Positions 1,457 to 29,532 of a stretch of 33,374 bases of DNA are shown here, one piece after another. Source of the DNA: Spirochaetaceae bacterium (GTDB lineage Bacteria; Spirochaetota; Spirochaetia; B11-G9). The notes under the pieces are model-generated. The model was not told the origin of the DNA and did not search any database. It worked only from the letters and a program-made list of their open reading frames with translations. The stretch spans positions 1 to 33,374 of the forward strand of contig JAUVLL010000001.1 of NCBI GenBank assembly GCA_030600745.1, read 5' to 3'. The translations under genes were made by a program, and so were the position numbers. Positions within the stretch are counted from its first letter, which is position 1, and each line of letters begins with the position of its first letter.

Positions 1457-1522
1457 TCAGGCCGGCTTATAACCAGGGGCAGAGAGTTCTCTCGGGCTTA
1501 TTTTAAGAATCTCAAATTTATC

Positions 1523-1551
1523 TTGCATTATAACAAAAGTGGGTTTACAAT
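1523..1551 (+). promoter_or_regulatory. Sigma70-like promoter of the LacI-family gene (TTGCAT-17 nt-TACAAT)
   Basis: TTGCAT at 1523-1528, a 17-nt spacer, then TACAAT at 1546-1551. The -10 element overlaps the left edge of the 46-bp palindrome. Confidence 0.45.
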
Positions 1552-1593
1552 ACCTTATGGTAACGATACCGGTATCGTTACCATAAGGTATTG
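1548..1593. promoter_or_regulatory. Perfect 46-bp palindrome containing two abutting 12-bp LacI-type operator units (core 1559-1582); putative autoregulatory operator
   Basis: CAATACCTTATGGTAACGATACC|GGTATCGTTACCATAAGGTATTG is a perfect inverted repeat centred at 1570/1571. The units GGTAACGATACC (1559-1570) and GGTATCGTTACC (1571-1582) each have the central CG typical of LacI/GalR operators. Confidence 0.7.
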
Positions 1594-1625
1594 ATGTAAG
1601 ATTATTAAGGAGTCTGCACGGTTTT

Positions 1626-2630
1626 ATGACTGTAACAATAAAGGATATTGCCAGACATTCAGGTGTTTCAGTTTCTACAGTATCCAGGGTTCTAAATAAG
1701 AAGCCTGATGTAAACACAGAGACTGAAGCCAGGGTAAAGAGTGCAATAAAAGAGCTTGGTTACAGTCCCAGCAGTGTTGCCAGGGGGCTTGTGTTAAAAA
1801 AATCCAATGCCATTGGGTTTGTAGTACCGGATATAACAAATCCTAATTTTCCTGAACTTGCAAGGGGAGTTGTCGAGAAAGCCAGGCAGCATGGCTACTC
1901 TGTCATCTTCTTTGATACGAATCATGATAACAAAGTTGAAAAGGAAGCATTAAAACTTCTTAGAAGTAAGCAGGTGGATGGAATTATTGTTTCTTTTTCA
2001 GAGGCTAACCAGGATGAATTTAAAAAATTAAAAGAGGACCAGTTTCCTGCTGTACAGATCTATCGGAAAAGCCCCAAATCAGTGATATCCACAATTGCCA
2101 TAGACAATATTGATTCTGCATACAGAGCAGTAAAGTACTTAATAAGTCTGGGGCATCGTAGAATTGGTCATATTACTACTGGAATATCAACCCTGTCCGG
2201 AGCAGAACGTTTGGAAGGTTATAAAAAAGCTATTGAAGAATCAGGTATTGAGTACAGGGATGAGTGGATTTTTTCAGGCTCTCATTGTGCGGATACAGGG
2301 TATGAAGGAATGAAGATATTATTAAATCAGGAAAATCGTATAACTGCTCTGTTTGCTTCTCATGATCTGATGGCTGTAGGAGCCTATGAGGCTGTTTTTG
2401 AGAAAGGGCTTTCTATACCCGGTGATATTTCAATAATAGGGCATGATAATATAGAAATATCCAGGCTCGTTCATCCAAAGTTAACTACAATCGATACATT
2501 TAAGAATAAACTGGGTCAGGCCGGGGTTGAACTGCTTCTAGAGGAGATTGGAGAAAGCACAAAAGTAAACCGGGAGATAGTTTTTAAGACAGAATTGATT
2601 GTAAGAGATTCAACCGGTAAAATTGGCTGA
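1626..2630 (+). CDS. LacI/GalR-family transcriptional repressor
   Basis: 334 aa. The N-terminal HTH 'TIKDIARHSGVSVSTVSRVLN' is followed by a periplasmic-binding-protein-like sugar-binding core. An AAGGAG SD lies upstream. Confidence 0.92.
   Translation: MTVTIKDIARHSGVSVSTVSRVLNKKPDVNTETEARVKSAIKELGYSPSSVARGLVLKKSNAIGFVVPDITNPNFPELARGVVEKARQHGYSVIFFDTNHDNKVEKEALKLLRSKQVDGIIVSFSEANQDEFKKLKEDQFPAVQIYRKSPKSVISTIAIDNIDSAYRAVKYLISLGHRRIGHITTGISTLSGAERLEGYKKAIEESGIEYRDEWIFSGSHCADTGYEGMKILLNQENRITALFASHDLMAVGAYEAVFEKGLSIPGDISIIGHDNIEISRLVHPKLTTIDTFKNKLGQAGVELLLEEIGESTKVNREIVFKTELIVRDSTGKIG
2595..2623 (+). promoter_or_regulatory. Candidate sigma70-like promoter for the downstream operon (TTGATT-17 nt-TAAAAT), inside the 3' end of the LacI gene
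   Basis: TTGATT at 2595-2600, a 17-nt spacer, then TAAAAT at 2618-2623. The double operator follows about 40 nt downstream. Confidence 0.35.
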
Positions 2631-2663
2631 AGTAATGAATGTAAATTTATTTTTAAATAAACC

Positions 2664-2687
2664 GGTAACGATACCGGTAACGTTACC
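2664..2687. promoter_or_regulatory. Second double operator: GGTAACGATACC followed by the perfect palindrome GGTAACGTTACC
   Basis: The 12-mer at 2664-2675 is identical to the unit at 1559-1570. It is followed directly by the perfect palindrome GGTAACGTTACC (2676-2687), which ends at the ATG at 2688. Confidence 0.65.
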
Positions 2688-3698
2688 ATGGATGGTAAAC
2701 TGGAAGGGAAAATGATTACCAGAATGAAAATTGATGAGAAAACATTTAAGGACAGGGCTGTTGCAACTATGATTGCCCTTGCTGTAGGAGATGCAGCAGG
2801 AGATCTTGGGAGAGATGATGCTGTAAGACAGAAGTATGGAATTGTTAGCAAGTTACTTCCTGAGGGAAAGAGTACCGATGATACCGAATTTACAGCACTC
2901 TCAGCCAGAGCCTTGCTGGACTGCAAAGATGAGTTTACTGCACAGTTTGTTGCAGACACCTGGCGCAGACTTGTTCTTTCCGATGGCGGAGCAAAAGAGA
3001 GGGGGGGGACCCCGTTATACGGAGCCTTATGGAACCTTTCCCAGGGAATAGAACCTCCTTTATCAGGAAAAGATAATACCCTTAATATAGATGATGGTGC
3101 AGCTATGAGGGCTGCTCCCTTTGGTATAGCTGCTGTCGGTAATCCTGAAGAAGCTGCCCGGCTTGCAGGAATTGATGCATCTGTCAGTCACGATCATGAT
3201 GGTATCTGGGCCGCTCAGGCTATTGCAGCCTCAATATCAGTAGCAGTAACCGGCGCTGGAGTCGACGAAGTTGTTGAAGCAGGACGAAAGTTTATCCCCG
3301 ACGACAGCTGGTTGGGGAGAAGAATGGTTCAGGCTATGGATCTGGTTGATTCCATGGATGATCATTATGAACTCTATGACAGGCTCCATACTGATCTGTG
3401 GGCTCCAAGGCATTCGGTCTCTCCGGAAGCAATTCCTCAGATCTATGCTCTTTACCGTATGTCTAAAGGTAACTTTAGAAAAGGTTTTATCCTTGCGGCT
3501 AATTTTGGAAGGGATGCAGACACAGTAACAGCTCTGGTTTTGGCATTATGTGCAGCAGGGGAGGGGCTTTCTGTTATTCCTGATGAATGGGTAGAACAGG
3601 TGCGGCATCCCGCAGGTGTGTGTCTCTCTTTTGCAAAGGATGAGGATATGTACGATTTAGGTGTTCAACTTGCAGCATATGCATTGAACAGGAGTTAA
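2688..3698 (+). CDS. ADP-ribosylglycohydrolase (ARH/DraG-fold) family hydrolase
   Basis: 'AVGDAAGD', 'KSTDDTEF' and the C-terminal 'GRDADTVTA' match the metal-ligand motifs of the ARH fold (PF03747-type). The ATG at 2688 has no SD and abuts the operator. The ATG at 2712, preceded by GGAAGGG, is a plausible alternative start. Confidence 0.85.
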   Translation: MDGKLEGKMITRMKIDEKTFKDRAVATMIALAVGDAAGDLGRDDAVRQKYGIVSKLLPEGKSTDDTEFTALSARALLDCKDEFTAQFVADTWRRLVLSDGGAKERGGTPLYGALWNLSQGIEPPLSGKDNTLNIDDGAAMRAAPFGIAAVGNPEEAARLAGIDASVSHDHDGIWAAQAIAASISVAVTGAGVDEVVEAGRKFIPDDSWLGRRMVQAMDLVDSMDDHYELYDRLHTDLWAPRHSVSPEAIPQIYALYRMSKGNFRKGFILAANFGRDADTVTALVLALCAAGEGLSVIPDEWVEQVRHPAGVCLSFAKDEDMYDLGVQLAAYALNRS

Positions 3699-3734
3699 TA
3701 ATTAAAGGAAATATACAAAAATAAGGGGTGGAAA

Positions 3735-4634
3735 GTGAAAGGAAATATTCAAAAAAGAATAGTAAAAGATAAGCAGATGTATCTATTACTCTTTCCTGTT
3801 ATACTATTCTTTATAATATGGCACTACATACCTATGTGGGGAGCAAGAATTGCATTTCAGGATGTAATGTATATAGGGGCCAATAAATGGGCAGGACTCA
3901 GGCACTTTAAAATGCTTTTTTCTTCCCCTGTATTTTTAAAAGTATTTATGAATACAATTATAATCAGTTCTATGAAAATGTTTCTTATCTTTCCTCTTCC
4001 TATCATTCTGGCCTTTATGCTTAATGAAGTAACCAGCCACGGATTTCGAAAAAGTGTTCAGAGTGTTATTTATCTTCCCCATTTTCTTTCCTGGGTTGTT
4101 ATTGCAGGACTGTTTATATCACTCCTCGCTTCGCCGGATGGCGCAGTGAATAAAGTGCGCATCTTTTTTCATATTAAACCAATAGCATATATGACTTCCA
4201 CTTCGCATATTCGCTGGGTTTTTGTTTTTTCTGAAATCTGGAGGAGTATAGGCTGGGATTCGATACTCTACATAGCTGCAATAAACAGTATTGCGCCGGC
4301 CTTGTACGAAGCGGCAACAATAGACGGTGCTACACCTTTTCAGCAGGCAATGAATATTACATTCCCGGCAATTGTTCCGACAATCGTTACTGTTTTTATT
4401 CTCAATCTCGGATTCTTTATGAATGCCGGTTTTGATCAGGTTTTTAATATGATGAACGATGCAGTTATAAATCATGTTGATATTATAGATACCTATGTAT
4501 ATCGGGTTGGTTTAAAGCAGGGGAATTATTCCCTGGGAACTGCAGCTGGACTTTTTAAGGGTATTATCGGGCTGTTTCTTATTCTGTCAACCGATAAACT
4601 AAGCCGTAAAATTTCCGGTGAGGGGGTTTGGTAA
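3735..4634 (+). CDS. CUT1-family carbohydrate ABC transporter permease (LplB/YtcP-like)
   Basis: 299-aa polytopic membrane protein. The N-terminus 'YLLLFPVILFFIIWHYIPMWGARIAFQD' is typical of LplB-type permeases, and the EAA-like loop 'YEAATIDGATPFQQ' is present. GTG start with an AAGGGGTGG SD. Confidence 0.9.
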   Translation: MKGNIQKRIVKDKQMYLLLFPVILFFIIWHYIPMWGARIAFQDVMYIGANKWAGLRHFKMLFSSPVFLKVFMNTIIISSMKMFLIFPLPIILAFMLNEVTSHGFRKSVQSVIYLPHFLSWVVIAGLFISLLASPDGAVNKVRIFFHIKPIAYMTSTSHIRWVFVFSEIWRSIGWDSILYIAAINSIAPALYEAATIDGATPFQQAMNITFPAIVPTIVTVFILNLGFFMNAGFDQVFNMMNDAVINHVDIIDTYVYRVGLKQGNYSLGTAAGLFKGIIGLFLILSTDKLSRKISGEGVW

Positions 4635-5518
4635 TGAGTGTAAAAAAACATGGAATCGGACATTTTCTTATAATCTTGTTATTATCTATGGGTGCAATTA
4701 TATTAGTTTATCCATTATACAATCAGCTGATTATTTCTCTTACAGGAACAGATTATATATCAAGAGCCAGTGGGACAACTATAATCCCCTATGGGTTCAC
4801 TTTGAGTACATACAAAACTGTTCTTGCCATTCCTAAAGTAGCAAGGGGCGTTTTTAACTCTATTTTCATCACTGCTGTTGGTCTGGTTATAAATATTGTT
4901 TTTACCAGTATGGGGGCTTATGTTCTTACAAAACGGGACCTGGTGGGTAGAAACTTTTTTATAACCTTGATTGTAATTACGATGATTTTTGAAGGCGGAC
5001 TCATTCCAGATTATTTTCTTATGCGTAAGCTGCATCTTCTTAATTCCTATTGGTCGGTTATTCTTTATAAAGCGATTAATCCTTACTATCTTATTATCCT
5101 TATGCGCTTTTTTGATCAGGTGCCATCTTCTCTTATTGAGGCGGCAAGAATTGACGGTCTTAACGAAACAAAGATCCTTTTTAAAATTGTTATCCCGGTA
5201 AGCGTTGCGGGTATTGCAACCGTAAGTTTGTTTTATGGTGTTTTTCACTGGAATGAGTACTTCAGGGCGATGATCTATCTGACTGATGAATTAAAATTCC
5301 CTCTTCAGGTTGTATTGAGGGAGCTTTTAATCTCTGCAGAAAAAGCATCATTTATCGGCAGCATGAATTATCTCAAAGTAACTGCTGCGGCCCAGCTTGA
5401 TATAAAAGCTATTAAAGCAGCTTTAATAATTATTTCCATTGTACCAATTCTTGCATTCTACCCGTTTGTACTTAAATATTTTGTTAAGGGAAGACTGGAG
5501 GGATCGGTTAAAGAATAA
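4634..5518 (+). CDS. CUT1-family carbohydrate ABC transporter permease (LplC-like)
   Basis: Multi-TM protein with the EAA loop 'IEAARIDGLNETKILFKIVIP'. The ATG at 4634 overlaps the upstream TAA (TAATG) and is preceded by a GAGGGGG SD. The track start at 4628 is a TTG. Confidence 0.9.
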   Translation: MSVKKHGIGHFLIILLLSMGAIILVYPLYNQLIISLTGTDYISRASGTTIIPYGFTLSTYKTVLAIPKVARGVFNSIFITAVGLVINIVFTSMGAYVLTKRDLVGRNFFITLIVITMIFEGGLIPDYFLMRKLHLLNSYWSVILYKAINPYYLIILMRFFDQVPSSLIEAARIDGLNETKILFKIVIPVSVAGIATVSLFYGVFHWNEYFRAMIYLTDELKFPLQVVLRELLISAEKASFIGSMNYLKVTAAAQLDIKAIKAALIIISIVPILAFYPFVLKYFVKGRLEGSVKE

Positions 5519-5521
5519 AAA

Positions 5522-5549
5522 ATTGCAGAAAATCTTTTAAATCTGCAAT
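5522..5549 (+). other. Intercistronic stem-loop (8-bp stem ATTGCAGA/TCTGCAAT, 12-nt loop) upstream of the binding-protein gene
   Basis: The inverted repeat was read directly. It has no U-tract, so it is more likely an mRNA-processing or stability element than a terminator. Confidence 0.3.
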
Positions 5550-5576
5550 AGAAACAATGTTTCACAGGAGGATTTT

Positions 5577-6989
5577 ATGAAACGTTTTTTAATTACACTA
5601 CTTATGATGACAATACTTGTATCATTAGTCTTTGTCGGATGTAAGAAGAAAGAAGAGGCCCCCGCTTTATCAACTGAAGTCCCTACTATTCGTATTGTGG
5701 GAAAAGATTTTTCACCTACCGACGATATTAATCTTCAGTTCCTTGAAAAAGTAGCTGCTGGATTTGAAGTGTACTCAGGCCAGAAAGTAAATCTGGAATT
5801 GGTTCAGGTTCCTGATGGCGGATACCAGGAAAAACTGAATCTTATGCTTATGGGTGGTGATATACCAGACATGATATATTTTCAGGGTGGAGATGAAGCT
5901 GTTTCAAAACAGGGTCTTTTAGTTGATTTAAAATCATATGTTGATAATTCAAAAGTAATGCAGAATGTACTTCAGGATTTTAACAAACAGAGAATTGCAA
6001 ATTATCCATACCTTCTCTGGATTGCTCCTCCCCGTGCACGTATAGCTCTTGTCAGAGAAGACTGGTTTGCTGAAGCAGGAGGCAAGGTTCCTGTTACTGT
6101 TGATGACTACTATAATTTTTTTAAGACTATCAAGAACAATCATCCGGATGCATTTGTTATGACCGATACCGGAAATACTACCCGAATGGATTTTACCTTT
6201 GATCATGCTTTTGGTGAGACTGCTACATGGGTTAAACAGGGTGGATCCTATGTTTATAAAAAAGTATCTGATGCAGAAAAAGCAAAATTGGCTTTTTATC
6301 AGAAACTCTATGCAGAAGGTCTTTTTGACAAAGATTATGTAACAACCAAATGGGATACCATGGAAGATAAGCTCTACAATAACAAGGTTGCAATGGCTTT
6401 TGGTACTTCCGGAGTTGTTTGTGATATATACGATACTAAACTGCAGACTAATCAGAATGTTGGTCTTGTGGCTCTTCCTCCTGCAAAGGGTGTTGGTCAG
6501 GGATATTCTGTTTCAACAGCAAAAGAAACAAGAGGCTGGGCAATCAGTGCAACAAGTATGAATCCTGATCTTGTTTTTCAACTGTTGGAATTTATGGCAA
6601 CTGATGAAGGGCAGCTTCTTGATCGTTATGGTGTTGAAGGTGTTCATTATACTGTGGATAATGGTAAATATACAGCTACTGATAAAAAATCAGAATGGTG
6701 GCCCCGAATTAATGAGGTTATGACATATGATGGTCCTATGCCTCTTCTTGGTGTTTTAGGTTTAAAGAGTTGGGACTTCCTCGGTGAATATGTAGTCGGT
6801 GATCCTGACTTTCCTATTCCTGCTGATATGGCTCCAACATGGGATGCTCTGACAAATCTGTATAAAGAATACAATTTTAAGATTATTGCCGGTGAATACT
6901 CTATTGATAAGTTTGATGAATTTGTTAAAGAATGGTATGATCTTGGTGGTGATAAGATTACAGAATATGCACAGGGACAGCTTAAATAA
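5577..6989 (+). CDS. Extracellular solute-binding lipoprotein of the CUT1 transporter (LplA-like)
   Basis: 470 aa. It has a signal peptide with the lipobox 'LVFVGC' and the size and composition typical of LplA-type sugar-binding lipoproteins. An AGGAGG SD is present. Confidence 0.9.
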   Translation: MKRFLITLLMMTILVSLVFVGCKKKEEAPALSTEVPTIRIVGKDFSPTDDINLQFLEKVAAGFEVYSGQKVNLELVQVPDGGYQEKLNLMLMGGDIPDMIYFQGGDEAVSKQGLLVDLKSYVDNSKVMQNVLQDFNKQRIANYPYLLWIAPPRARIALVREDWFAEAGGKVPVTVDDYYNFFKTIKNNHPDAFVMTDTGNTTRMDFTFDHAFGETATWVKQGGSYVYKKVSDAEKAKLAFYQKLYAEGLFDKDYVTTKWDTMEDKLYNNKVAMAFGTSGVVCDIYDTKLQTNQNVGLVALPPAKGVGQGYSVSTAKETRGWAISATSMNPDLVFQLLEFMATDEGQLLDRYGVEGVHYTVDNGKYTATDKKSEWWPRINEVMTYDGPMPLLGVLGLKSWDFLGEYVVGDPDFPIPADMAPTWDALTNLYKEYNFKIIAGEYSIDKFDEFVKEWYDLGGDKITEYAQGQLK

Positions 6990-7000
6990 AACAAATTATT

Positions 7001-7046
7001 GTAGGCCGTTTGTAAGGGCGCAATTAATCGCGCCCCTACAACGGCC
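7001..7046. repeat. GC-rich REP-like imperfect palindrome (GTAGGCCG...CGCCCCTACAACGGCC)
   Basis: GGCCGTTTGTAAGGGCGC / GCGCCCCTACAACGGCC arms surround the loop AATTAATC, with one indel and one mismatch. The minus strand carries the core GTAGGGGCG. This GC-rich island sits in AT-rich intergenic DNA between the SBP and ARH2 genes and has no U-tract. Confidence 0.6.
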
Positions 7047-7079
7047 ATCAAACATTCGCATCCGCGGATAAGGGAAAAA

Positions 7080-9182
7080 ATGAACAAACAGAAATATCTG
7101 GAACAGGTATACTCAGGGCTTCTGGGGATGTGCGCAGGTGTAAGACTTGGCGCCCCTGTGGAACCTACAATATGGACATACGAAAGAATCAAGGCCACCT
7201 ATGGGGATATCCGGGGGTATGTTAAAAACTACAGCAACTTTGCGGCAGATGATGACGTAAACGGGCCTGTATTTTTTATTAGATCTCTTTTGGATTTTAA
7301 ACCTCCTTTAACAGCAGAAAAAGTGGGAAAAACATGGCTTAACTATACCAGAGAGGGGATAGGTTTTTACTGGTGGGGTGGTTATGGCAGGAGTACTGAA
7401 CATACAGCTTATATAAACCTTAAAAATGGTATTCCTGCACCGGATTCCGGCAGTATAAAAGTTAACGGAAAAGCTATTGCAGAGCAGATAGGGGGTCAGA
7501 TTTTTATTGATTCATGGGGATTGGTTTTTCCTGATAATTACAAAAAAGCTGCTGAATATGCAAAGATGGCAGCAAGTGTCGGGCATGACGGTAATGGTAT
7601 CTACGGCGCTGTTTTTGTTGCAGCTTTAATTTCATTGGCATTTACCAGTTCTGATCTTCCATTAATGATAGATAGGGCTTTGGAACTTATTCCATCTGAC
7701 AGTGAATATACACGGGTTGTTAAATCAGTCCGTGATTTTTATTTATCAAATTCAAATACTGGACCGGATGACTGGAGAGCATGCAGGGATTTTCTTACAA
7801 GTGACTTTGGCTATGATAAGTATCCCGGTGTTTGCCACATAATACCCAACTCCGGTGTAATTGCCCTGGCTCTTTACTATGGTAGGGGGGATTTTGCAAG
7901 AACTATTGAGATAGCAACAATGAGCGGATGGGATACGGATTGTAATGCCGGGAACGTGGGTACCATACTTGGTGTTATGGCTGGTCCGGAAGGAATTCCG
8001 GAGCGTTACAGTAGACCAATAAATGACTTCCATGCTGCCAGCAGTATCTCCGGAGCATTAAACATTCTGGATCTGCCTACAGTGTCAAAGGAACTTGCTG
8101 TACTTGGGCTTAAGCAGTTAGAAGATGACATTCCTGACGAATGGGAAAAAGGTACCTTTTCTGATGATATTTACTTTGACTTTACTATTCCCGAAACCAC
8201 CCATGGACTCCGAACTTCCAGTGAGTATCTGACACCTCTGAAAGAAGGGGCTTGCCCCGGGGACGGAGGAAGGGGAAAAGTAACCTTTATACTTGACCGA
8301 ATAAAAGAGAAGGATGAATCAAAAATTTTCTACAAACCCTATTATAAAAGGGAAGACTTCGATGATGAACGATATTCTCCCACATTTACTCCACTCGTTT
8401 ATCCTGGTCAGATAATGCACATTGAAGCAATGGTAGAACGGTTCAGTGGTCGGGATATATGTATTGCACCATACGTTAGAGACTCATCAACAAAAAAAAT
8501 ACTTTTAGGTAAAGAATTTTCTCCTGAATCAGGAAAAGAAGTTATTGTGGATTGGATAATCCCGGATGTACCATTTGCTGTGGATGAAGCAGGTTTACTA
8601 ATAAGAGGAATTGACAGTGAAAAATTTTTAGGAGAACTTTGTATTTATAACTATTCCATATCCGGTAAAAAGAAGTTTCATATAGATTTTGCTGACGAAG
8701 TAAAGGAATTCGGCGGCCTTAGTCGATGTTCACTTACAGGTGGCTCCTGGAGCATAGAAGAGGGACAGCTAAATGTGATTACCAACGAAACCTTCGGACT
8801 CTATACGGGGCCATATTACTGCAGTGATTATACTGTGGAAACTGTTTTAACCCCGGAGTACGGGACAAGTCATCTTGTAATTTTTAGATCAATAGGTGCT
8901 GAAAGAGGTTATTATTTTGGTCTCAATGGAAATAATAAAGTTGCGTTAATAAAGAGGGACCATGAAAATATTGTTGTTGCAGAAACTGATTTTCCATGGA
9001 GTATTGGGAAGGATTATACTCTTAAAGTGGAAGCAGCAGGCAGGATATTCCGCTGCTTTATAGATGGGAAAGAACTTATTAATTTTGAAGATAAAAATCC
9101 GTTTCCGGCAGGAATGGCCGGTCTTGGCAAACTGGAACCTGGCAGGACCCTTTATAGCAGCATTACATTTTCGGAGAATTAA
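7080..9182 (+). CDS. ARH-fold hydrolase fused to a beta-rich middle region and a C-terminal ConA-like/LamG (DUF1080-type) domain
   Basis: The N-terminal ~330 aa show the ARH signature: 'GLLGMCAGVRLGAPVE', 'AADDDVNG', 'MSGWDTDCNAGNVGTILG'. The C-terminal ~160 aa (from about nt 8700) follow the lectin-like jelly-roll pattern ('GGSWSIEEGQL', 'YTVETVL', 'GYYFGL', 'YTLKVEAAGRIFRCFIDGKELINFED', 'GMAGLG'). No signal peptide is evident. Confidence 0.85.
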   Translation: MNKQKYLEQVYSGLLGMCAGVRLGAPVEPTIWTYERIKATYGDIRGYVKNYSNFAADDDVNGPVFFIRSLLDFKPPLTAEKVGKTWLNYTREGIGFYWWGGYGRSTEHTAYINLKNGIPAPDSGSIKVNGKAIAEQIGGQIFIDSWGLVFPDNYKKAAEYAKMAASVGHDGNGIYGAVFVAALISLAFTSSDLPLMIDRALELIPSDSEYTRVVKSVRDFYLSNSNTGPDDWRACRDFLTSDFGYDKYPGVCHIIPNSGVIALALYYGRGDFARTIEIATMSGWDTDCNAGNVGTILGVMAGPEGIPERYSRPINDFHAASSISGALNILDLPTVSKELAVLGLKQLEDDIPDEWEKGTFSDDIYFDFTIPETTHGLRTSSEYLTPLKEGACPGDGGRGKVTFILDRIKEKDESKIFYKPYYKREDFDDERYSPTFTPLVYPGQIMHIEAMVERFSGRDICIAPYVRDSSTKKILLGKEFSPESGKEVIVDWIIPDVPFAVDEAGLLIRGIDSEKFLGELCIYNYSISGKKKFHIDFADEVKEFGGLSRCSLTGGSWSIEEGQLNVITNETFGLYTGPYYCSDYTVETVLTPEYGTSHLVIFRSIGAERGYYFGLNGNNKVALIKRDHENIVVAETDFPWSIGKDYTLKVEAAGRIFRCFIDGKELINFEDKNPFPAGMAGLGKLEPGRTLYSSITFSEN

Positions 9183-10715
9183 ATGTCAAAACTATTTGAA
9201 TATCAAGGGAAAAAACTTCTTGAGGCGGGCGGTTTTAAAATCCCCAGGAGTATGATAATAAAATCTATAAGTGATGCAGAAGAAGTATTTGAAGAAATCG
9301 GATCAGGTGTACTTAAAGCCCAGGTTTTTACAACAGGAAGAGCTGCATTAGGACTTGTTAAATTCCCGGAGACTTTAAAAGATTTACATACTTATATCGG
9401 TGAAATGCTTAGTCAGAGTATTAAAGGTTATAAAATAGAAACCCTTCTTTTTGAGGAAAAACTGGATATTAAACAGGAATATTTTGCAGGAATTATCCTA
9501 TCGACCGGGAAATCTTCTCCTACACTTGTTTTCAGCTCAAAGGGAGGTTCGGGGATAGAAGAGATTGTCTCCAAATATCCTGAATCGGTTTTTTTTCTGG
9601 ATATTAATCCGGATAAAATCCCTCTGCCCTTTGAACTGATTCCTCTTTTAAAAGATACAGGTATTTCCGGTAGGATATTAAATCTTTTATCTTCCAGTCT
9701 TATATCTCTAATTAAGACAGCTATTAAAAATGAGGCAAAAAGTCTGGAGATCAATCCTCTTGTTCTTACTAAAGAGGGAAAGATTATTGCTGCTGACTGT
9801 CATATGACAGTTGATGACTATGCTGTTTTCAGGCATCCCGAATTTGGTATTGAGATAGCACGGGAGCTTGGTCATCCTCCGACTGAACTTGAAAAAATTG
9901 CCTGGGCCGTTGAAAAGGATGATTACAGGGGTACTTTCTATTTTATACAGATGGAGCAGAATTTTAAGAAAGGGGATGGTGTTCTCGGATTTCATGGAGC
10001 AGGAGGGGGCGGCTCGATGATGAGTATGGATGCACTTCAGACTTATGGGTACAAAGTAGCTAATTTTTGCGATACATCAGGAAATCCTCCCGCTTCAAAG
10101 ATATACCGGGCTGCAAAAATTATTCTTTCTCAAAAAAATATTGACGGATACTTTGGATCAGGTTCCGGTGTTGCCAGTCAGGAGCAGTTTCATAGCGCCA
10201 GAGGTATTGTAAAGGCATTGAGAGAAGTAGATCCGGACTTTTCTGTTGTTTTTAGACTGGGTGGAAACAGTGAAGATAAAGCAATAAGGATTTTGGAGGA
10301 TTATACTAAAGACTTAAATTGCAGTGTAAAGTGTTTTGGAAAAGATACTTCTGTAACCGAATGTGCAGGTGAGATGGATCGGATGATGAAAGAGGGAAGA
10401 GAAGAGAGGGGAGAAGATATAACTAATCCTGAACCCCATAAATTTGATTATAGTTTTTATACTGTTACAGGTGGAACTGTAAGTTTCGATTATTCTTTAT
10501 GTAAAACTTGTTTATCGAAGGTGTGTATTAAAGAATGTCAGGGTGGGATACTTAAGGAAGTAAACGGAGTCCCTGTTCTGAATATTACAAAGACCGAAGC
10601 GACATCAGGCAAGTGTACTGAATGTCTTGCCTGTGAGGTAGAGTGTCTGGCTATAGGAAATGGTGGAGGAAAGATTTTTCTTCCCATTGAGGGTCTGGAA
10701 GGAGGTGTTTCATAA
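9183..10715 (+). CDS. SucC/CcsA/AclB-like ATP-grasp subunit of an ADP-forming acyl-CoA (citryl-CoA-type) synthetase, with a C-terminal 2x[4Fe-4S]-ferredoxin-like Cys domain
   Basis: The N-terminus 'MSKLFEYQGKKLLEAGGFKIP' parallels the SucC N-terminus, and 'LEINPLV' is present. The C-terminus carries CKTCLSKVCIKEC and CTECLACEVEC. The start is directly contiguous with the upstream stop (TAAATG). Confidence 0.8.
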   Translation: MSKLFEYQGKKLLEAGGFKIPRSMIIKSISDAEEVFEEIGSGVLKAQVFTTGRAALGLVKFPETLKDLHTYIGEMLSQSIKGYKIETLLFEEKLDIKQEYFAGIILSTGKSSPTLVFSSKGGSGIEEIVSKYPESVFFLDINPDKIPLPFELIPLLKDTGISGRILNLLSSSLISLIKTAIKNEAKSLEINPLVLTKEGKIIAADCHMTVDDYAVFRHPEFGIEIARELGHPPTELEKIAWAVEKDDYRGTFYFIQMEQNFKKGDGVLGFHGAGGGGSMMSMDALQTYGYKVANFCDTSGNPPASKIYRAAKIILSQKNIDGYFGSGSGVASQEQFHSARGIVKALREVDPDFSVVFRLGGNSEDKAIRILEDYTKDLNCSVKCFGKDTSVTECAGEMDRMMKEGREERGEDITNPEPHKFDYSFYTVTGGTVSFDYSLCKTCLSKVCIKECQGGILKEVNGVPVLNITKTEATSGKCTECLACEVECLAIGNGGGKIFLPIEGLEGGVS

Positions 10716-11638
10716 TGAGCATACTCCCTGGCAAATCCGGGAAAGTTATTATACAGGGAATAACAGGAAGAGAGGGCCGGGCCAGAACAAAACTAATGGT
10801 CGATATTGGGACTAATGTTGTTGCCGGTGTTACTCCTGGACAGGGTGGAAGCAGGGGGGTCTGGGGAGTACCTGTTTATGACACTGTTAACGAAGCTGTA
10901 GAAATCCATGGAAACATTGATATAACCGTTGTTTTTGTTCCTGCGCCTCTGGTAAAAAATGCAGTTATTGAATCATTTGCTTCGGGTGTAAAACTTGCTG
11001 TAATTGTTCCGGACAGAGTTCCTGTTTATGATGTAATGGCAATTGCAAGGGCAGCCGGGGAATATGGAGCAAGGTTTACAGGTCCCAATACTCTTGGAGT
11101 TTTATCACCGGGGATAGGTGTCCTCGGTATGATCGGAGGGAATGCTGATAGTGTCAGGAAATGGTTTAAGCCCGGGCCCGTTGGAATTACCTCGAGAAGC
11201 GGAGGTCTTACAACCTCAACGGCCTACTATCTTAGTCAGGCTGGTATTGGTCAAAGTACAATAGTTCATGTTGGCGGAGATTCTATAATCGGTCTTCCCC
11301 ATCCGGAAGTAGTTAAGCTTTTTCAGGACGACCCTGAAACAAAACTAATAGTACTGCTTGGCGAAATTGGCGGTTCTCAGGAGGAGGATGTTGCAGAACT
11401 TATGTCAACTGGCAAAGTTACAAAACCGGTGGTAGCCTATGTGGGCGGAAGGGGAGCAAAAGAGGGTACCCAATTTTCCCATGCAGGTGCTATAATAGAG
11501 GGCAGCCGGGGCACGTATCAGGGTAAAGTAGATAGTCTAAGAGATGCGGGAGCAATAGTTGTTGATGATATTAGTTCTATCCCGGCCGAGGTAAAGAAAA
11601 TTTTAGATAAACTGGGGATTCCTTATGTCAGAGATTAG
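10715..11638 (+). CDS. SucD/CcsB-like CoA-binding alpha subunit of the succinyl-/citryl-CoA synthetase family
   Basis: 'KVIIQGITGREG', 'GVTPGQGG', 'VPVYDTVNEAV', 'GPNTLGV', 'SRSGGLT' and the phosphohistidine loop 'FSHAGAII' are all present. The start overlaps the upstream stop (TAATG) after a GGAAGGAGG SD. Confidence 0.88.
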   Translation: MSILPGKSGKVIIQGITGREGRARTKLMVDIGTNVVAGVTPGQGGSRGVWGVPVYDTVNEAVEIHGNIDITVVFVPAPLVKNAVIESFASGVKLAVIVPDRVPVYDVMAIARAAGEYGARFTGPNTLGVLSPGIGVLGMIGGNADSVRKWFKPGPVGITSRSGGLTTSTAYYLSQAGIGQSTIVHVGGDSIIGLPHPEVVKLFQDDPETKLIVLLGEIGGSQEEDVAELMSTGKVTKPVVAYVGGRGAKEGTQFSHAGAIIEGSRGTYQGKVDSLRDAGAIVVDDISSIPAEVKKILDKLGIPYVRD

Positions 11639-12455
11639 CTTAGATAAAAGGTCGGAAAATAATGGTGCAGTAACATGGGAAACAAAAATAACAGAAATTA
11701 AGAAAGATGAAATACGAATACAGGGATATCGCCTGGATGAGCTTATGGGAAAGCGCAGTTTTGGAGATATGGTATTTTTAATGTTGAAGGGAGAACTTCC
11801 CAGAGACAATGAAGGCAGAATGATGGATATTATGCTGGTTTCCTGTATAGATCATGGAGTAACTCCTCCATCAACCCTGGCTGCTCTGACTTCTGCATCT
11901 ACAGGGGCTCCTTATAATGGTGCTCTTGCAGCAGGTATTTTATCTATCAATGAGCATCATGGCGGAGCAATAGAGAACTCCATGCGAATGCTTATGGAAT
12001 TAAAAGAAATTTTAGATAGTTCCCAGGATTCAGGAAGAGACTTTACTGCTGCAGTAGGTAAACTTTTGGATATATATAAAAATGAGAATCGTAAACTCCC
12101 GGGATTTGGTCATAGAATTCATAAAAATGACCCCAGGACAGGTAAATTACTGGATTTTGCAGATGAATTTGGTCTTTCAGACAGCTGGGTCCGTTTACTG
12201 ACAGGACTTAAGGATGGTATTCAGAAATCTATAGGTAAGGATCTGCCAATAAATGTGGATGGTGCTATTGCGGCACTGCTGCTTGAGTTGGAAATTGCAC
12301 CGGAGCTGGCTAATTCCTTTTTTATAATGGCCAGGGTTCCCGGTCTTGTGGCTCATATTCATGAAGAAAAAACTATTCAGAAACCTATGAGATGTATAGA
12401 TCCGGTTAATCATATCTATACTGGTATTTCTGCCAGGGATATTCCGGAAAAATAG
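11625..12455 (+). CDS. Short citrate-synthase-fold protein, citryl-CoA lyase-like (resembles the ATP-citrate lyase C-terminal domain)
   Basis: 'INEHHGGA', 'GFGHRIHKNDPR' and 'PINVDG' correspond to the His/His/Asp catalytic positions of the citrate synthase family. At 276 aa it matches the short Ccl-type form rather than a full-length citrate synthase. It overlaps the SucD-like gene by 14 nt. Confidence 0.8.
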   Translation: MSEISLDKRSENNGAVTWETKITEIKKDEIRIQGYRLDELMGKRSFGDMVFLMLKGELPRDNEGRMMDIMLVSCIDHGVTPPSTLAALTSASTGAPYNGALAAGILSINEHHGGAIENSMRMLMELKEILDSSQDSGRDFTAAVGKLLDIYKNENRKLPGFGHRIHKNDPRTGKLLDFADEFGLSDSWVRLLTGLKDGIQKSIGKDLPINVDGAIAALLLELEIAPELANSFFIMARVPGLVAHIHEEKTIQKPMRCIDPVNHIYTGISARDIPEK

Positions 12456-12643
12456 CGGCAGGAGAAACACTTTTAGTTTGATAACATCGCAAATAGCTTT
12501 AATAAGCTGGATATTTTTATTAATAAATTTATATCATATATTTGCTTTCTTCCGTCTGTTCTTTTATTATTGTAAGTATAGGAGGTTGGCAATCCAATTA
12601 TTGAAGTGATGATTAAGAGCTATAATAGGCAGGAGTGTGTGTT

Positions 12644-29500: not shown

Positions 29501-29532
29501 ATTTAAAGGCAAAGGTAGAAGCAAGACTTTGA
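26506..29532 (+). CDS. Large secreted helical-repeat (TPR-like / coiled-coil) hypothetical protein, 1008 aa
   Basis: A long uninterrupted ORF with an N-terminal hydrophobic signal/anchor 'ILYLILILFILIPLNLYAGG'. TPR-like segments recur ('YNDAILLLTEIMRTNPD', 'YLEEAILINSDYDTA'). The TTG start at 26506 is uncertain. Confidence 0.8.
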   Translation: MGYIHLVYFIQYRKILYLILILFILIPLNLYAGGHREDRMPDVLALVEERQYNDAILLLTEIMRTNPDQFSEAQKLIQKISIVRSAYNDLYAQLIKVLDPPAGEDIDKDKAYGIIKEMEGLDSNPNKAALAAFAQARESIVFAVNDRAYQILMDTAADQISKKEYIKAIETYLGGFTLHSDGFVEKDYGNIAEDQVEIYQNIILVAAGDFLNSYNRVLDASKIYSNIIKRGSVKEIESGYPAYSSIMLEVSAYWKTLKGTAEKLDNLGFSIQREDESDIPYISTNRALTVGRSSLVKQEGIAGVLSYVWDNAQEPVAGIIISQLENVYIEAVNGYEASSFDNSRILFSDAGRLAVVVVNVLKLRGDKLYLNNNLKIKDNGLEIVQAELPDILYSQAVSKAVPVYTDLLLIAEELNSISKTVEASGSVEGIDEAISGLNIIQTDLNNNGKAITEFIDEQLLITDSVLNLTKTKDSMVNLKNNLGILNKNIFTAKVRSEERKLTLEIEPVRFKIGNSIEAIHTSEAYVDGIEEIINGLSHKVKRPDRAEELLTRTKDELEAADIALNRFIKNVKDAKDPAIKSSPSIIFQLNSAADLKSDIRLRKQEIDRLLSKAKVLNDEADDAYSFGILRLDEAYGKFDREDFDGARKKYYEAEALFLKSLEFREDVKVRNLLTGELAKLDSDITLSLNRKIITEVRRLINKGKDYYNLQEFIKAEQSLQQAQARYKVTNEENNQEVDNWLSKVSRALEATSGRNIAITDPLYSDIIAILNRAGEEFEKGITLLKSNRKTEAEAHFSEAIKNIELVKEPFPRNFKASVLYLKILEYTQAETFNSYFKSVYDTAISNISNNPKTADDDLLALYEINPDYPGIKTAIYRSGVSSGRIIPPPAQVDIKRAQDLYRQAKTIVDLDRRSQFPIALAYLEEAILINSDYDTAAILMDKIRTSTGGVSQVAMTTSDTQQLRYAESLYIEGRYLEANIIVNQLWVKPDNRKSSKLNDLKAKVEARL

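Follow-up and report, generated by a model that had tools for sequence, protein, structure and literature searches.

The genes at positions 1626-12455 raise the question of which compound a bacterium would handle with a LacI-family repressor, ADP-ribosylhydrolase (ARH)-fold hydrolases, a CUT1 importer and an acid-cleaving module encoded side by side. We consider it probable that they form a catabolic operon, repressed by the LacI protein, whose imported substrate is a citrate-family hydroxy-acid (citrate, or a close analogue such as homocitrate or citramalate) in ribofuranosyl-conjugated form. The operon appears to be real and repressor-controlled, and the system is apparently undescribed; no description of it was found in the searchable literature. 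Gene content, operators, protein folds, linkage conservation and module interchange were obtained by computation, and we infer the direction of flux, the identity of the acid and every enzyme activity.

The window (the whole stretch of 33,374 nucleotides analysed) contains nine co-directional genes on the + strand, spanning 1626-12455. The order is repressor, short ARH hydrolase, two permeases, binding protein, ARH-lectin fusion and a three-gene acid-cleaving module:

1626-2630, + strand: LacI-family repressor, 334 aa (Pfam LacI, Peripla_BP_1 and Peripla_BP_3)
2688-3698, + strand: ARH-1, short hydrolase of the ADP-ribosylhydrolase fold, 336 aa if translated from the first ATG (PF03747, E = 2.6e-41)
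3735-4634, + strand: ABC permease 1, UgpA/MalF-like (BPD_transp_1; NCBIfam similarities UgpA, GlcT and MalF)
4628-5518, + strand: ABC permease 2, UgpE/MalG-like (BPD_transp_1; NCBIfam similarities GlcU and UgpE)
5577-6989, + strand: solute-binding lipoprotein, 470 aa, large AlgQ/LplA-like type (SBP_bac_1)
7080-9182, + strand: ARH-lectin fusion, 700 aa (PF03747, E = 4.7e-54; ARH3-like catalytic domain, galectin-like and CBM66-like beta-sandwiches)
9183-10715, + strand: SucC-like ATP-grasp subunit, 510 aa (ATP-grasp_2; Citrate_bind 37.6 bits, cutoff 26.8)
10715-11638, + strand: SucD-like CoA-binding/phosphohistidine subunit, 307 aa (CoA_binding and Ligase_CoA)
11625-12455, + strand: citryl-CoA lyase (CCL), 276 aa, short citrate-synthase fold (Citrate_synt; NF004869 243.5 bits, cutoff 212)

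All nine genes were assigned to Pfam and NCBIfam families, and the profile searches recovered the ARH, ATP-grasp_2/Ligase_CoA/CoA_binding and Citrate_synt domains expected from the initial annotation. The co-directional run with minimal gaps that it described agrees with the open reading frame list, in which the run begins at lacI (1626). Its junctions also match the sequence. Specifically, TAAATG at 9180-9185 contains the stop codon of ARH-lectin directly followed by the SucC-like start, TAATG at 10713-10717 is the SucC-like/SucD-like overlap, and the CCL ATG at 11625 lies 14 nt within the SucD-like gene. No ABC ATPase gene was found in the operon or the whole window, and no ribokinase gene in the window. 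The sole sizeable intergenic gap of the operon, 6990-7079, follows the binding-protein gene and holds one feature:

7004-7046, + strand: strong RNA hairpin with no U-run (-35.9 kcal/mol, z -5.2)

It is the only hairpin of its kind in the window, and GC-rich hairpins occupy the equivalent position in the related loci L007, L011, L012 and L016. We propose that it acts as an mRNA stabiliser or partial attenuator; because it stands between the binding-protein and ARH-lectin genes, the genes of 7080-12455 may be expressed at a reduced level or in part independently of those upstream.

The best NCBIfam similarities of the repressor are PurR, CytR and RbsR, each scoring under its cutoff. Three putative control elements lie next to its gene and to ARH-1:

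1523-1551, + strand: putative sigma-70 promoter of the repressor gene, TTGCAT (1523-1528), 17-nt spacer, TACAAT (1546-1551)
1553-1588, no strand: predicted operator O1, a perfect 36-bp palindrome with tandem 12-mers GGTAACGATACC and GGTATCGTTACC
2661-2690, no strand: predicted operator O2, tandem 12-mers GGTAACGATACC (2664-2675) and GGTAACGTTACC (2676-2687), the latter directly before the first ATG of ARH-1

The candidate promoter was read by eye and lies under the threshold of the consensus scan. ARH-1 may start at 2712 or 2724 rather than at 2688. With at most one mismatch, the motif GGTAACGNTACC gives eight strand-hits from four 12-mers, paired in tandem at 1559-1582 and 2664-2687, and no site elsewhere in the 33 kb. 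The chance expectation is 0.17 sites, and eight hits were reached in 0 of 100 shuffles. The scan thus bears out the earlier statement that operators are confined to the flanks of the repressor gene and the first ARH gene. The motif is also present upstream of lacI in L007, L010 and L012, and between lacI and ARH-1, at the same position, in L007, L010, L011, L012, L019 and L025.

ARH-1 carries the metal-site motifs TDDT (63-66) and DADT (286-289), has DraG and MJ1187 as relatives in the PDB, and is proposed to be a ribosidase. In the ARH-lectin fusion, the motifs DDD (57-59) and DTD (285-287) are invariant. The AlphaFold2 model of the fusion (pLDDT 83, pTM 0.88, with some stretches of the ARH domain modelled at low confidence) has two beta-sandwiches behind an ARH3-like N-domain, so that the "lectin" part named in the initial annotation is real. 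The last sandwich of the model matches CBM66 in Foldseek with TM 0.85 and rmsd of 1.8 Å, and by sequence with E ~1e-4. CBM66 is fructofuranose-specific. No signal peptide was found in the fusion, which is therefore probably cytoplasmic. We know of no demonstration of ARH-fold enzymes acting as catabolic ribofuranosidases on small glycosides.

The binding protein has a signal peptide and the lipobox VFVGC, and its nearest solved relatives are the alginate-binding AlgQ1/AlgQ2 and other family-1 solute-binding proteins (E ~1e-15). In the trio, the SucC-like protein ends in a tail with two Cys4 motifs (Fer4_9, E = 0.044). The SucD-like protein keeps an intact SHAGA motif with His256 and scores under the SCS-alpha equivalog cutoffs. 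CCL residues H77, H112, D169 and R237 are invariant in the alignment.

ARH-lectin relatives occur in the genomes of at least 500 bacterial species. Linkage was counted at 62 loci with at least 6 kb of flank on each side. A CUT1 transporter and a short ARH are present at all 62, an acid-cleaving module at 59 and a ribokinase-like gene at 46; no acid module was found nearby at 3 of the 62. The gene neighbourhood, whose conservation had been suggested as a check, is thus conserved. The module comes in four interchangeable types: SucCD-like plus CCL, ACD-like plus CCL (as in the Sediminispirochaeta operon, with an ACD-type ligase), CitDEF-like citrate lyase, and AtuA plus DUF4387. The last is the commonest (52 of 84 loci) and is found in most Firmicutes; its two proteins match PDB 9erq/9evf, deposited as citramalate lyase CmlA/CmlB, with E = 4e-135 and 2.7e-28, respectively. 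A CitD/E/F-like module replaces the trio in otherwise identical spirochaete operons with the same operator motif, and CitF of these sister operons scores 532 bits against the citrate-lyase alpha equivalog cutoff of 501. The Firmicute kinase scores 320 bits (L002) and 324 bits (L035) against the ribokinase equivalog TIGR02152 (cutoff 299.65), a pass seen in these two top-scoring loci, which points to ribose as the sugar. Ribose is probably also the sugar in the present organism. Linkage, replacement of the module by unrelated enzymes of the same chemistry, and ribokinase are three independent lines, none of them accessible when the initial annotation was made, in support of the earlier idea that a ribosylated or glycosylated polycarboxylic acid is imported, freed of its sugar by the ARH enzymes and, after CoA-dependent activation, cleaved at a C-C bond.

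Chance juxtaposition, in which the trio would be a housekeeping CCS/CCL that replaces citrate synthase or ATP-citrate lyase and merely lies downstream of an ARH/ABC operon, is strongly disfavoured. It draws on the hairpin, which parts the upstream genes from 7080-12455, and on the closest non-operon CCL relatives (53-56% identity), which lie amid genes for aconitase, isocitrate dehydrogenase, fumarase and 2-oxoacid:ferredoxin oxidoreductase. Against it, the ARH-linked CCLs form a 33-member clade of their own, apart from the clade holding four TCA-linked CCLs; the window CCL sits in the ARH-linked subclade, and the sister clade adjoins TCA-cycle genes. Among the sampled contexts, CCLs of at least 59% identity are ARH-linked (3/3) and those of at most 56% are TCA-linked (4/4), so the nearest relatives contradict the possibility, raised with the initial annotation, that such trios are never linked to ARH or transporter genes elsewhere. 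Equal longest-contig sizes suggest nine further CCL and ARH-lectin pairs on the same contig. The arrangement of trio and ARH-lectin repeats in L007, L009 and L088, TAAATG couples the two in the window, and non-homologous cleaving modules stand at the same place in orthologous operons. Because the modules swap, it is also unlikely that the trio is the ordinary ATP-citrate-lyase equivalent, the other outcome weighed at that time.

In the favoured scheme, an anionic glycoside would be imported by the lipoprotein and the two permeases, powered by an ATPase encoded elsewhere. The fusion would bind the (oligo)furanoside through its two beta-sandwiches and, together with ARH-1, would hydrolyse the ribosyl linkages in the cytoplasm. 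Freed D-ribose would pass to a ribokinase, whose gene lies within the cluster of most relatives and is absent from the window. The SucCD-like ligase would convert the released acid with ATP to a CoA thioester, which the lyase would cleave to acetyl-CoA and a 2-oxoacid (for citrate, oxaloacetate). The repressor would bind the tandem 12-bp operators before its own gene and before ARH-1 until released by substrate or product.

The same framework with another acid, namely ribosyl-homocitrate (ribocitrin-like) or ribosyl-citramalate, yielding acetyl-CoA and 2-oxoglutarate or pyruvate, is possible and clearly less likely. The homology of the commonest module to CmlAB favours it, as does the fact that the sole riboside of a citrate-family acid found is a homocitrate tririboside. 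For aerobic Paenibacillus and Bacillus species a TCA cycle is to be expected, which would make a lyase devoted to plain citrate superfluous; they nevertheless encode one. However, all catalytic and oxaloacetate-site residues of the window CCL recur in the TCA-linked sister clade, with only two clade-specific columns (C74/S and T266/D), the sister-operon CitF passes its citrate-lyase cutoff, and the Citrate_bind region is kept in the SucC-like protein.

An imported oligosaccharide or glycoside that lacks an acid aglycone, with ARHs that cut non-ribose furanosides and a module that handles a branched-chain acidic sugar or sugar-derived intermediate, is improbable. The CBM66-like domain, the AlgQ-type binding protein and the window's lack of ribokinase fit such a substrate, as do the FGE-sulfatase-like gene and the 614-aa protein of no assigned family added at some Lachnospiraceae loci. 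However, the minimal operons (window, L011 and L004) have two ARH enzymes and a cleaving module as their only enzymes and lack any oxidoreductase, isomerase or dehydratase that could make a citrate-like acid from a sugar, and the frequent kinase passes the ribokinase cutoff where it scores highest. Scavenging of ADP-ribose or an NAD-derived conjugate (e.g. O-acyl-ADP-ribose-like) is more doubtful still. Both ARHs have canonical binuclear-metal motifs, the catalytic fold of the fusion is closest to ARH3, and ARH3 hydrolyses 1''-O-acyl-ADP-ribose. However, no Nudix, phosphatase or nucleosidase gene was found at any examined locus, and CUT1 transporters with binding proteins of the AlgQ type are known to us as carriers of glycosides, not of dinucleotides.

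Among known compounds, ribocitrin, "a tririboside of (S)-homocitric acid" from Streptomyces whose biosynthetic pathway is not known (PMC12381216; PMC13136089), provides a chemical precedent for a ribosylated citrate-family acid. Counting against the parallel, this Streptomyces product is not known from the anaerobic sediments, digesters and guts where many operon carriers live. Among known enzymes, citramalate lyase CmlAB is reported to split citramalate straight into pyruvate and acetate (preprint, bioRxiv 10.64898/2026.01.16.699985). The indications of which acid is cleaved diverge: CmlAB points to citramalate, TCA-type CCL and CitF to citrate, and ribocitrin to homocitrate. The SucC-like protein, proposed here as a citryl-CoA synthetase large subunit, is nearer in sequence to succinyl-CoA synthetase beta (PDB 3ufx, 4.5e-52) than to the large subunit of Hydrogenobacter CCS (6hxq_B, 6e-38), which counts against that role. 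The window CCL matches Hydrogenobacter citryl-CoA lyase (PDB 6hxp) with E = 2.4e-53, with its catalytic residues intact.

The locus between 1626 and 12455 consists of nine genes, all on the forward strand, and both the ORF list and the profile searches uphold the single direction of transcription given in the initial annotation. The genes, together with a transposase gene on their 5' side, are as follows.

Genes of the operon and the preceding transposase gene (window coordinates, strand, assignment)
339-854, +, IS200/Y1-type transposase gene; REP-associated tyrosine transposase (RAYT) model, 88 bits against a cutoff of 80
1626-2630, +, LacI-family repressor; Pfam LacI, Peripla_BP_1 and Peripla_BP_3
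2688-3698, +, ARH-1, short ADP-ribosylhydrolase (ARH)-fold protein; PF03747, E=2.6e-41
3735-4634 and 4628-5518, +, two permeases; BPD_transp_1 by profile search
5577-6989, +, binding protein with lipoprotein signal; SBP_bac_1 by profile search, lipobox
7080-9182, +, ARH-lectin, 700 aa; PF03747, E=4.7e-54, residues 13-309 only
9183-10715, +, SucC-like ATP-grasp protein, 510 aa; Citrate_bind region present
10715-11638, +, SucD-like subunit; CoA_binding and Ligase_CoA
11625-12455, +, CCL, predicted citryl-CoA lyase, 276 aa, citrate-synthase fold; NCBIfam citryl-CoA lyase NF004869, 243.5 bits against a cutoff of 212

The tight junctions reported for the 3' half also hold: the ARH-lectin stop and the SucC-like start are contiguous (TAAATG, 9180-9185), the SucC-like and SucD-like genes overlap by TAATG (10713-10717), and the SucD-like gene and CCL overlap by 14 nt (11625-11638). 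Two start codons deserve comment. The public gene call for ARH-lectin (P0001, 684 aa) begins 16 codons 3' of the ATG at 7080; because homologues align from residue 1 with 100% coverage, the longer ORF is the better model. The first ATG of ARH-1 has no Shine-Dalgarno sequence, and the in-frame ATGs at 2712 and 2724 lie 3' of GGAAGGG (2702-2708); the true start is probably one of these rather than 2688.

The closest homologues of the window proteins are from Spirochaetia MAGs. The genes around the operon are unrelated to it, those on the 3' side including an inositol monophosphatase, a D-Ala-D-Ala carboxypeptidase and a class I Glu/Gln-type tRNA synthetase. An ORF of more than 1291 codons (29502-33374, +) runs past the 3' end of the window, and its N-terminus has a hydrophobic signal-like segment. 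The ~670 bp after the RAYT gene (855-1520) contain no convincing ORF, a megablast of 1500-12500 against a plasmid collection gave no match, and the Rfam collection, scanned across the whole window, yielded no RNA-family match.

The repressor has both an N-terminal HTH and a periplasmic-binding-protein-like effector domain (Pfam). The motif GGTAACGNTACC (at most one mismatch) occurs as two tandem pairs, at 1559-1582 (O1) and 2664-2687 (O2). Specifically, O1 lies inside a perfect 36-bp palindrome (1553-1588), and O2 ends 1 base before the first ATG of ARH-1. A scan of the whole 33-kb window found no further site, with a chance expectation of 0.17 and an observed count reached by no shuffle, so the claim that operators flank only the repressor gene and ARH-1 stands. 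The motif is kept at matching positions in the related spirochaete operons L007, L010, L011, L012, L019 and L025 (L-numbers denote relatives' loci fetched for comparison), and such conservation, as a phylogenetic footprint, speaks for a genuine LacI operator and for autoregulation. We predict that O1 and O2 are CG-centred palindromic LacI operators. The sequence TTGCAT-17-TACAAT (1523-1551), 5' of O1, is a plausible candidate promoter. Consensus scanning turned up no more promoters and terminators than chance would give, with no canonical terminator at 6989-7080 or 3' of 12455.

The sole sizeable gap in the operon (6990-7079) contains a hairpin at 7004-7046, with a folding energy of -35.9 kcal/mol and a z-score of -5.2, which is not followed by a U-tract. 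GC-rich hairpins also lie directly 3' of the binding-protein gene in relatives (L007:5366-5396, L011:9933-9977, L012:7872-7902 and L016:9951-9979); their position is conserved and their sequences differ, and a short U-rich stretch follows some copies. The hairpin in the window would be an mRNA-stabilising or partly attenuating element that raises the binding protein relative to downstream genes, and the positionally conserved hairpin may govern the stoichiometry between binding protein and downstream enzymes. The REP hairpins of the mal operon are a known precedent for such balancing of expression. The hairpin at 7004-7046 is the sole feature that could uncouple 7080-12455 in part from the operators. 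Its assignment as a REP element of the RAYT-like transposase (339-854) is unsupported, as no second copy is present in the window.

Both ARH proteins score far above the PF03747 cutoff of 26.2 bits (142.6 bits for ARH-1 and 184.4 bits for ARH-lectin), and each has both acidic metal-binding motifs (TDDT and DADT in ARH-1, DDD and DTD in ARH-lectin, the latter two invariant in 22 sequences). The AlphaFold2 model of ARH-lectin has a pLDDT of 83 and a pTM of 0.88, with low confidence at residues 27-53 and 97-141. In this model, compared by Foldseek, the N-terminal domain resembles ARH3 (TM 0.66-0.70), a galectin-like sandwich follows in the middle, and the C-terminal sandwich matches CBM66 of Bacillus levanase (4b1m; TM 0.85, rmsd 1.8 Å, 23% identity); a sequence search finds the same relationship at a phmmer E of about 1e-4. 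CBM66 is a module that binds terminal fructofuranose. ARH-lectin has no signal peptide, which places its probable action in the cytoplasm, on a molecule that has been imported.

The carbohydrate uptake transporter 1 (CUT1) importer is represented by two MalF/MalG-type permeases and a family-1 solute-binding protein with a lipobox, which is most similar to large AlgQ1/AlgQ2-type proteins, binders of acidic oligosaccharides. No MsmX/MalK-type ATPase gene is present in 1523-12455 or among the other window ORFs scanned; CUT1 systems commonly use shared ATPases encoded elsewhere. This context, namely an importer, a ribokinase in relatives, and no nucleotide-processing genes, argues for simple ribosides rather than ADP-ribosylated molecules as substrates of the ARH proteins.

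In the trio at the 3' end, the lyase and the small subunit have the features expected of the citryl-CoA synthetase (CCS)/CCL family, and the signals from the large subunit are mixed. CCL matches Hydrogenobacter thermophilus citryl-CoA lyase (6hxp, E=2.4e-53) and keeps the DH, HGGA, GFGHR...DPR and R-V-P-G motifs. The SucD-like protein has a CoA-binding domain and a phosphohistidine loop, with His256 in a SHAGA motif. The SucC-like protein passes the Citrate_bind cutoff (37.6 bits against 26.8) and falls below the SCS-beta equivalog cutoffs (214 against 375), but its best solved relative is SCS-beta (3ufx, 4.5e-52), ahead of the CCS large subunit (6hxq_B, 6e-38). Its tail (residues 433-488; window 10479-10646) contains CxxCx4CxxxC and CxxCxxCxxxC, motifs typical of a 2x[4Fe-4S] ferredoxin-like domain, with a Fer4_9 match only at E=0.044. 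If present, a redox-sensing or electron-transfer role in a CoA ligase subunit would be unusual.

The gene neighbourhood is conserved well outside the window. Scanning one genome per species gave at least 500 ARH-lectin relatives, and 80 of these loci were fetched, from Spirochaetota, Paenibacillus, Cohnella, Bacillus, Lachnospiraceae, Oscillospiraceae, Halanaerobiales and Negativicutes. ORFs were called in all loci and matched to reference proteins, and linkage was counted in the 62 loci flanked on either side by 6 kb or more of sequence. Two permeases, a binding protein and at least one short ARH are present in every one of these (62/62), an adjoining module predicted to cleave a citrate-type acid in 59/62, and a PfkB kinase in 46/62. 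The linkage proposed for the window is supported by this neighbourhood check. In two relatives, L002 and L035, the kinase scores above the ribokinase equivalog cutoff (320 and 324 bits against 299.65). Loci have two to four ARH paralogues, a number that several ribosyl linkages per molecule would explain.

Individual loci carry additional genes. In one relative, L088, a CN_hydrolase (nitrilase/amidase superfamily) gene (L088:3251-4075, +) lies between the ARH-lectin and SucC-like genes, and the CCL gene there is followed by a ferredoxin-like gene and a YjbR gene. The CN_hydrolase gene may point to a substrate variant with an amide linkage. Some Lachnospiraceae and Paenibacillus loci have an FGE-sulfatase-domain protein (L022:4713-5669, with homologues in L024, L027, L045 and L049) and a conserved 614-aa protein without a Pfam match (L049:18247-20091) inside or beside the ARH/CUT1 cluster.

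The position occupied by the trio in the window is filled by four unrelated modules among the relatives.

Modules found with the ARH/CUT1 core
(a) SucC-like, SucD-like and CCL: window, L007, L009 and L088
(b) ACD-type ligase (CoA_binding_2/Succ_CoA_lig and ATP-grasp_5) and CCL: Sediminispirochaeta bajacaliforniensis
(c) CitE, CitF and a small CitD-like ORF: 16 loci
(d) AtuA and DUF4387: 52 of 84 loci, the commonest partner of the core

Some of the CitE/CitF loci are spirochaete operons with the window's operator and, apart from the module, its gene order. With 532 bits, CitF exceeds its equivalog cutoff of 501. The CitD-like ORF 5' of CitE/CitF (L011:12087-12353, +) falls below the CitD cutoffs (57 bits against 65), and the serine that carries phosphoribosyl-dephospho-CoA is apparently replaced (GTDAKQDAVV) in comparison with the E. 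coli sequence. No citC, citX or citG was seen near CitE/CitF in L011. These sequence features suggest that an L011-type citrate-lyase-like complex may work without the usual prosthetic group. AtuA and DUF4387 have no function in Pfam and match structures deposited as citramalate lyase subunits A (cmlA) and B (cmlB) (PDB 9erq/9evf) with E=4e-135 and 2.7e-28. CmlAB from Raoultella planticola was used in bioRxiv 10.64898/2026.01.16.699985, and an earlier paper had pointed out a DUF1446 (AtuA-family) gene in the glutamate-fermentation cluster of enterobacteria, a pathway in which what becomes of citramalate was then unexplained. The four modules are predicted to share one reaction type, in which a 2-substituted malate (citrate, citramalate or homocitrate) is split to give a C2 unit and a 2-oxoacid. 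Because this is non-orthologous displacement at one operon position, the interchange is strong evidence that acid cleavage belongs to the pathway.

Together, these data define a probable, if not firmly established, general model: a catabolic operon for an imported ribofuranosyl conjugate of a citrate-family acid. Specifically, the CUT1 system would import an anionic ribofuranoside; the two ARH enzymes would hydrolyse its ribosyl bonds, with the lectin-like domains positioning the furanoside; the freed ribose would pass to ribokinase; the acid would be activated with ATP and CoA and then split into acetyl-CoA and oxaloacetate; and LacI would repress the whole operon until the substrate arrives. 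The window itself has no ribokinase gene, and ribose as the sugar in this genome is a prediction from the general model. The initial reading of the genes as import of a ribosylated or glycosylated (poly)carboxylic acid, ARH deglycosylation and acid cleavage gains support from gene context, namely conserved linkage and module interchange.

The relatives of the trio bear on its origin and on whether it belongs to the operon at all. Among the CCL homologues placed, those with at least 59% identity are ARH-linked (window, L007 and L088). Those with 53-56% identity (L005, L006, L089 and L090, some of them assigned to Anaerolineae or Chloroflexota) carry this gene trio too, next to aconitase, isocitrate dehydrogenase, PrpD, fumarase, succinate dehydrogenase-like and 2-oxoacid:ferredoxin oxidoreductase genes. 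An alternative reading takes the window trio for a housekeeping ATP-citrate lyase or a chance neighbour of the ARH genes. This is very improbable: four unrelated cleaving modules swapped at one operon position speak against a chance neighbour. The window trio is embedded in the ARH/ABC operon, and a TCA context occurs only in the sister clade. A neighbour-joining CCL tree groups the ARH-linked sequences within a clade of 33 members, with all four TCA-linked ones outside. Nine further members of the clade have a longest contig equal in length to that of ARH-lectin matches and may share a contig with them. Both clades keep the catalytic residues H77, H112, D169 and R237 without exception, and a search for specificity positions hinting at a substrate other than citryl-CoA found only two clade-specific columns, neither a known catalytic residue. 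Because of these invariant residues and the paucity of clade-specific columns, the trio has the look of citrate enzymes of the TCA type that the ARH operon recruited, their active site little changed.

The little-changed CCL active site favours citrate as the acid in this organism. Across the relatives the signals are mixed: CmlAB suggests citramalate, CCL and CitF suggest citrate, and the known compound ribocitrin suggests homocitrate; within the general model, we regard the case for citrate here as about evenly balanced. Ribocitrin, a Streptomyces tririboside of (S)-homocitric acid, is a chemical precedent for a substrate of this class. Two recent metabolomics studies of Streptomyces report its tentative detection (PMC12381216; PMC13136089), and its original structure is attributed there to Takashio et al. 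1982. A ribocitrin-like natural substrate is possible but rather doubtful. Aceric acid and apiose (branched-chain plant sugars), methanopterin-type ribosides, siderophores and opines were dropped as substrates, as the minimal operons lack enzymes converting them to a citrate-like acid or ribose is absent.

A broader proposal is more tentative than the general model. Ribofuranosylated citrate-family acids (ribocitrin-like) may be widespread, unrecognised environmental metabolites harvested by a dedicated pathway in at least three phyla; ARH-fold proteins, known so far as reversers of ADP-ribosylation, would then be catabolic ribofuranosidases, and four unrelated lyase systems (CCS/CCL, ACD/CCL, CitDEF-like and CmlAB-like) would have been recruited independently. 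If true, a large set of proteins labelled only 'ADP-ribosylglycohydrolase family protein' (Bacillota and Spirochaetota; at least 500 species genomes) would gain a physiological role, the ARH fold would extend from signalling into nutrient catabolism, citryl-CoA synthetase/lyase would be at work beyond autotrophic or central carbon metabolism, and a hidden class of ribosylated tricarboxylate metabolites would exist. Four non-homologous cleaving modules at one position are a clear case of non-orthologous displacement and provide testable substrates for the newly solved CmlAB family.

The component families (LacI, CUT1, ARH and CCS/CCL) are known, and their combination is apparently undescribed. 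A literature search for the ARH/CUT1/citrate-cleavage combination found no description, many subscription-journal articles being outside its reach; searches for ARH with citryl-CoA or citrate lyase, for AtuA with DUF4387, for DUF4387 and for citramalate lyase with AtuA likewise found no description of the system. Judged from sequence, the operon would be a substrate-inducible glycoside-utilisation operon with an enzyme logic without precedent and a substrate class yet to be assigned.

Several known systems resemble parts of the operon. The Bacteroides ribose-scavenging (rus) loci are likewise carbohydrate-utilisation loci for ribose-containing nutrients. These loci, reportedly described by Glowacki et al. 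in 2020, are said to have ribokinases and, in some variants, ARH-family genes, and to be SusC/D-type polysaccharide utilisation loci, not CUT1 ABC systems; we know of no citrate-cleaving module in them. The operon's ARH proteins share the fold and the binuclear-metal motifs of the ARH3/DraG ADP-ribosylhydrolases. Unlike those enzymes, they are encoded alongside an importer and ribokinase in a catabolic operon, one of them carries two fused lectin-like beta-sandwiches, and small ribofuranosides, not ADP-ribosylated proteins, are what they are predicted to act on.

The trio has the architecture of CcsAB and Ccl of Hydrogenobacter thermophilus (6hxq and 6hxp), namely a large subunit of the ATP-grasp type, a small subunit for CoA binding and phosphohistidine formation, and a short citrate-synthase-fold lyase as a protein of its own. 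In contrast to that system, the window trio is translationally coupled to ARH-lectin in a LacI-controlled transporter operon, its large subunit is nearer SCS-beta by sequence and has a C-terminal two-Cys4 tail, and its predicted flux is catabolic, cleaving an acid freed from a glycoside. The TCA-linked trios of Anaerolineae and other Chloroflexi-type MAGs, which are uncharacterised, form the nearest sister clade and share gene order, the long SucC-like form (510-518 aa) and the catalytic residues, but have no ARH or ABC genes; given the same length range, their SucC-like proteins may carry the Cys tail too. Citrate lyase CitDEF, the enzyme of citrate fermentation, takes the trio's position in the sister spirochaete operons L011, L012, L016, L018 and L019, which have the operator motif in common with the window, with the same predicted net reaction, citrate to acetate or acetyl-thioester and oxaloacetate, although its proteins are non-homologous to the trio. 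CmlAB performs a CoA-independent cleavage of 2-substituted malate to acetate and a 2-oxoacid; it is absent from the window, where the ATP- and CoA-dependent CCS/CCL is predicted to take the equivalent step.
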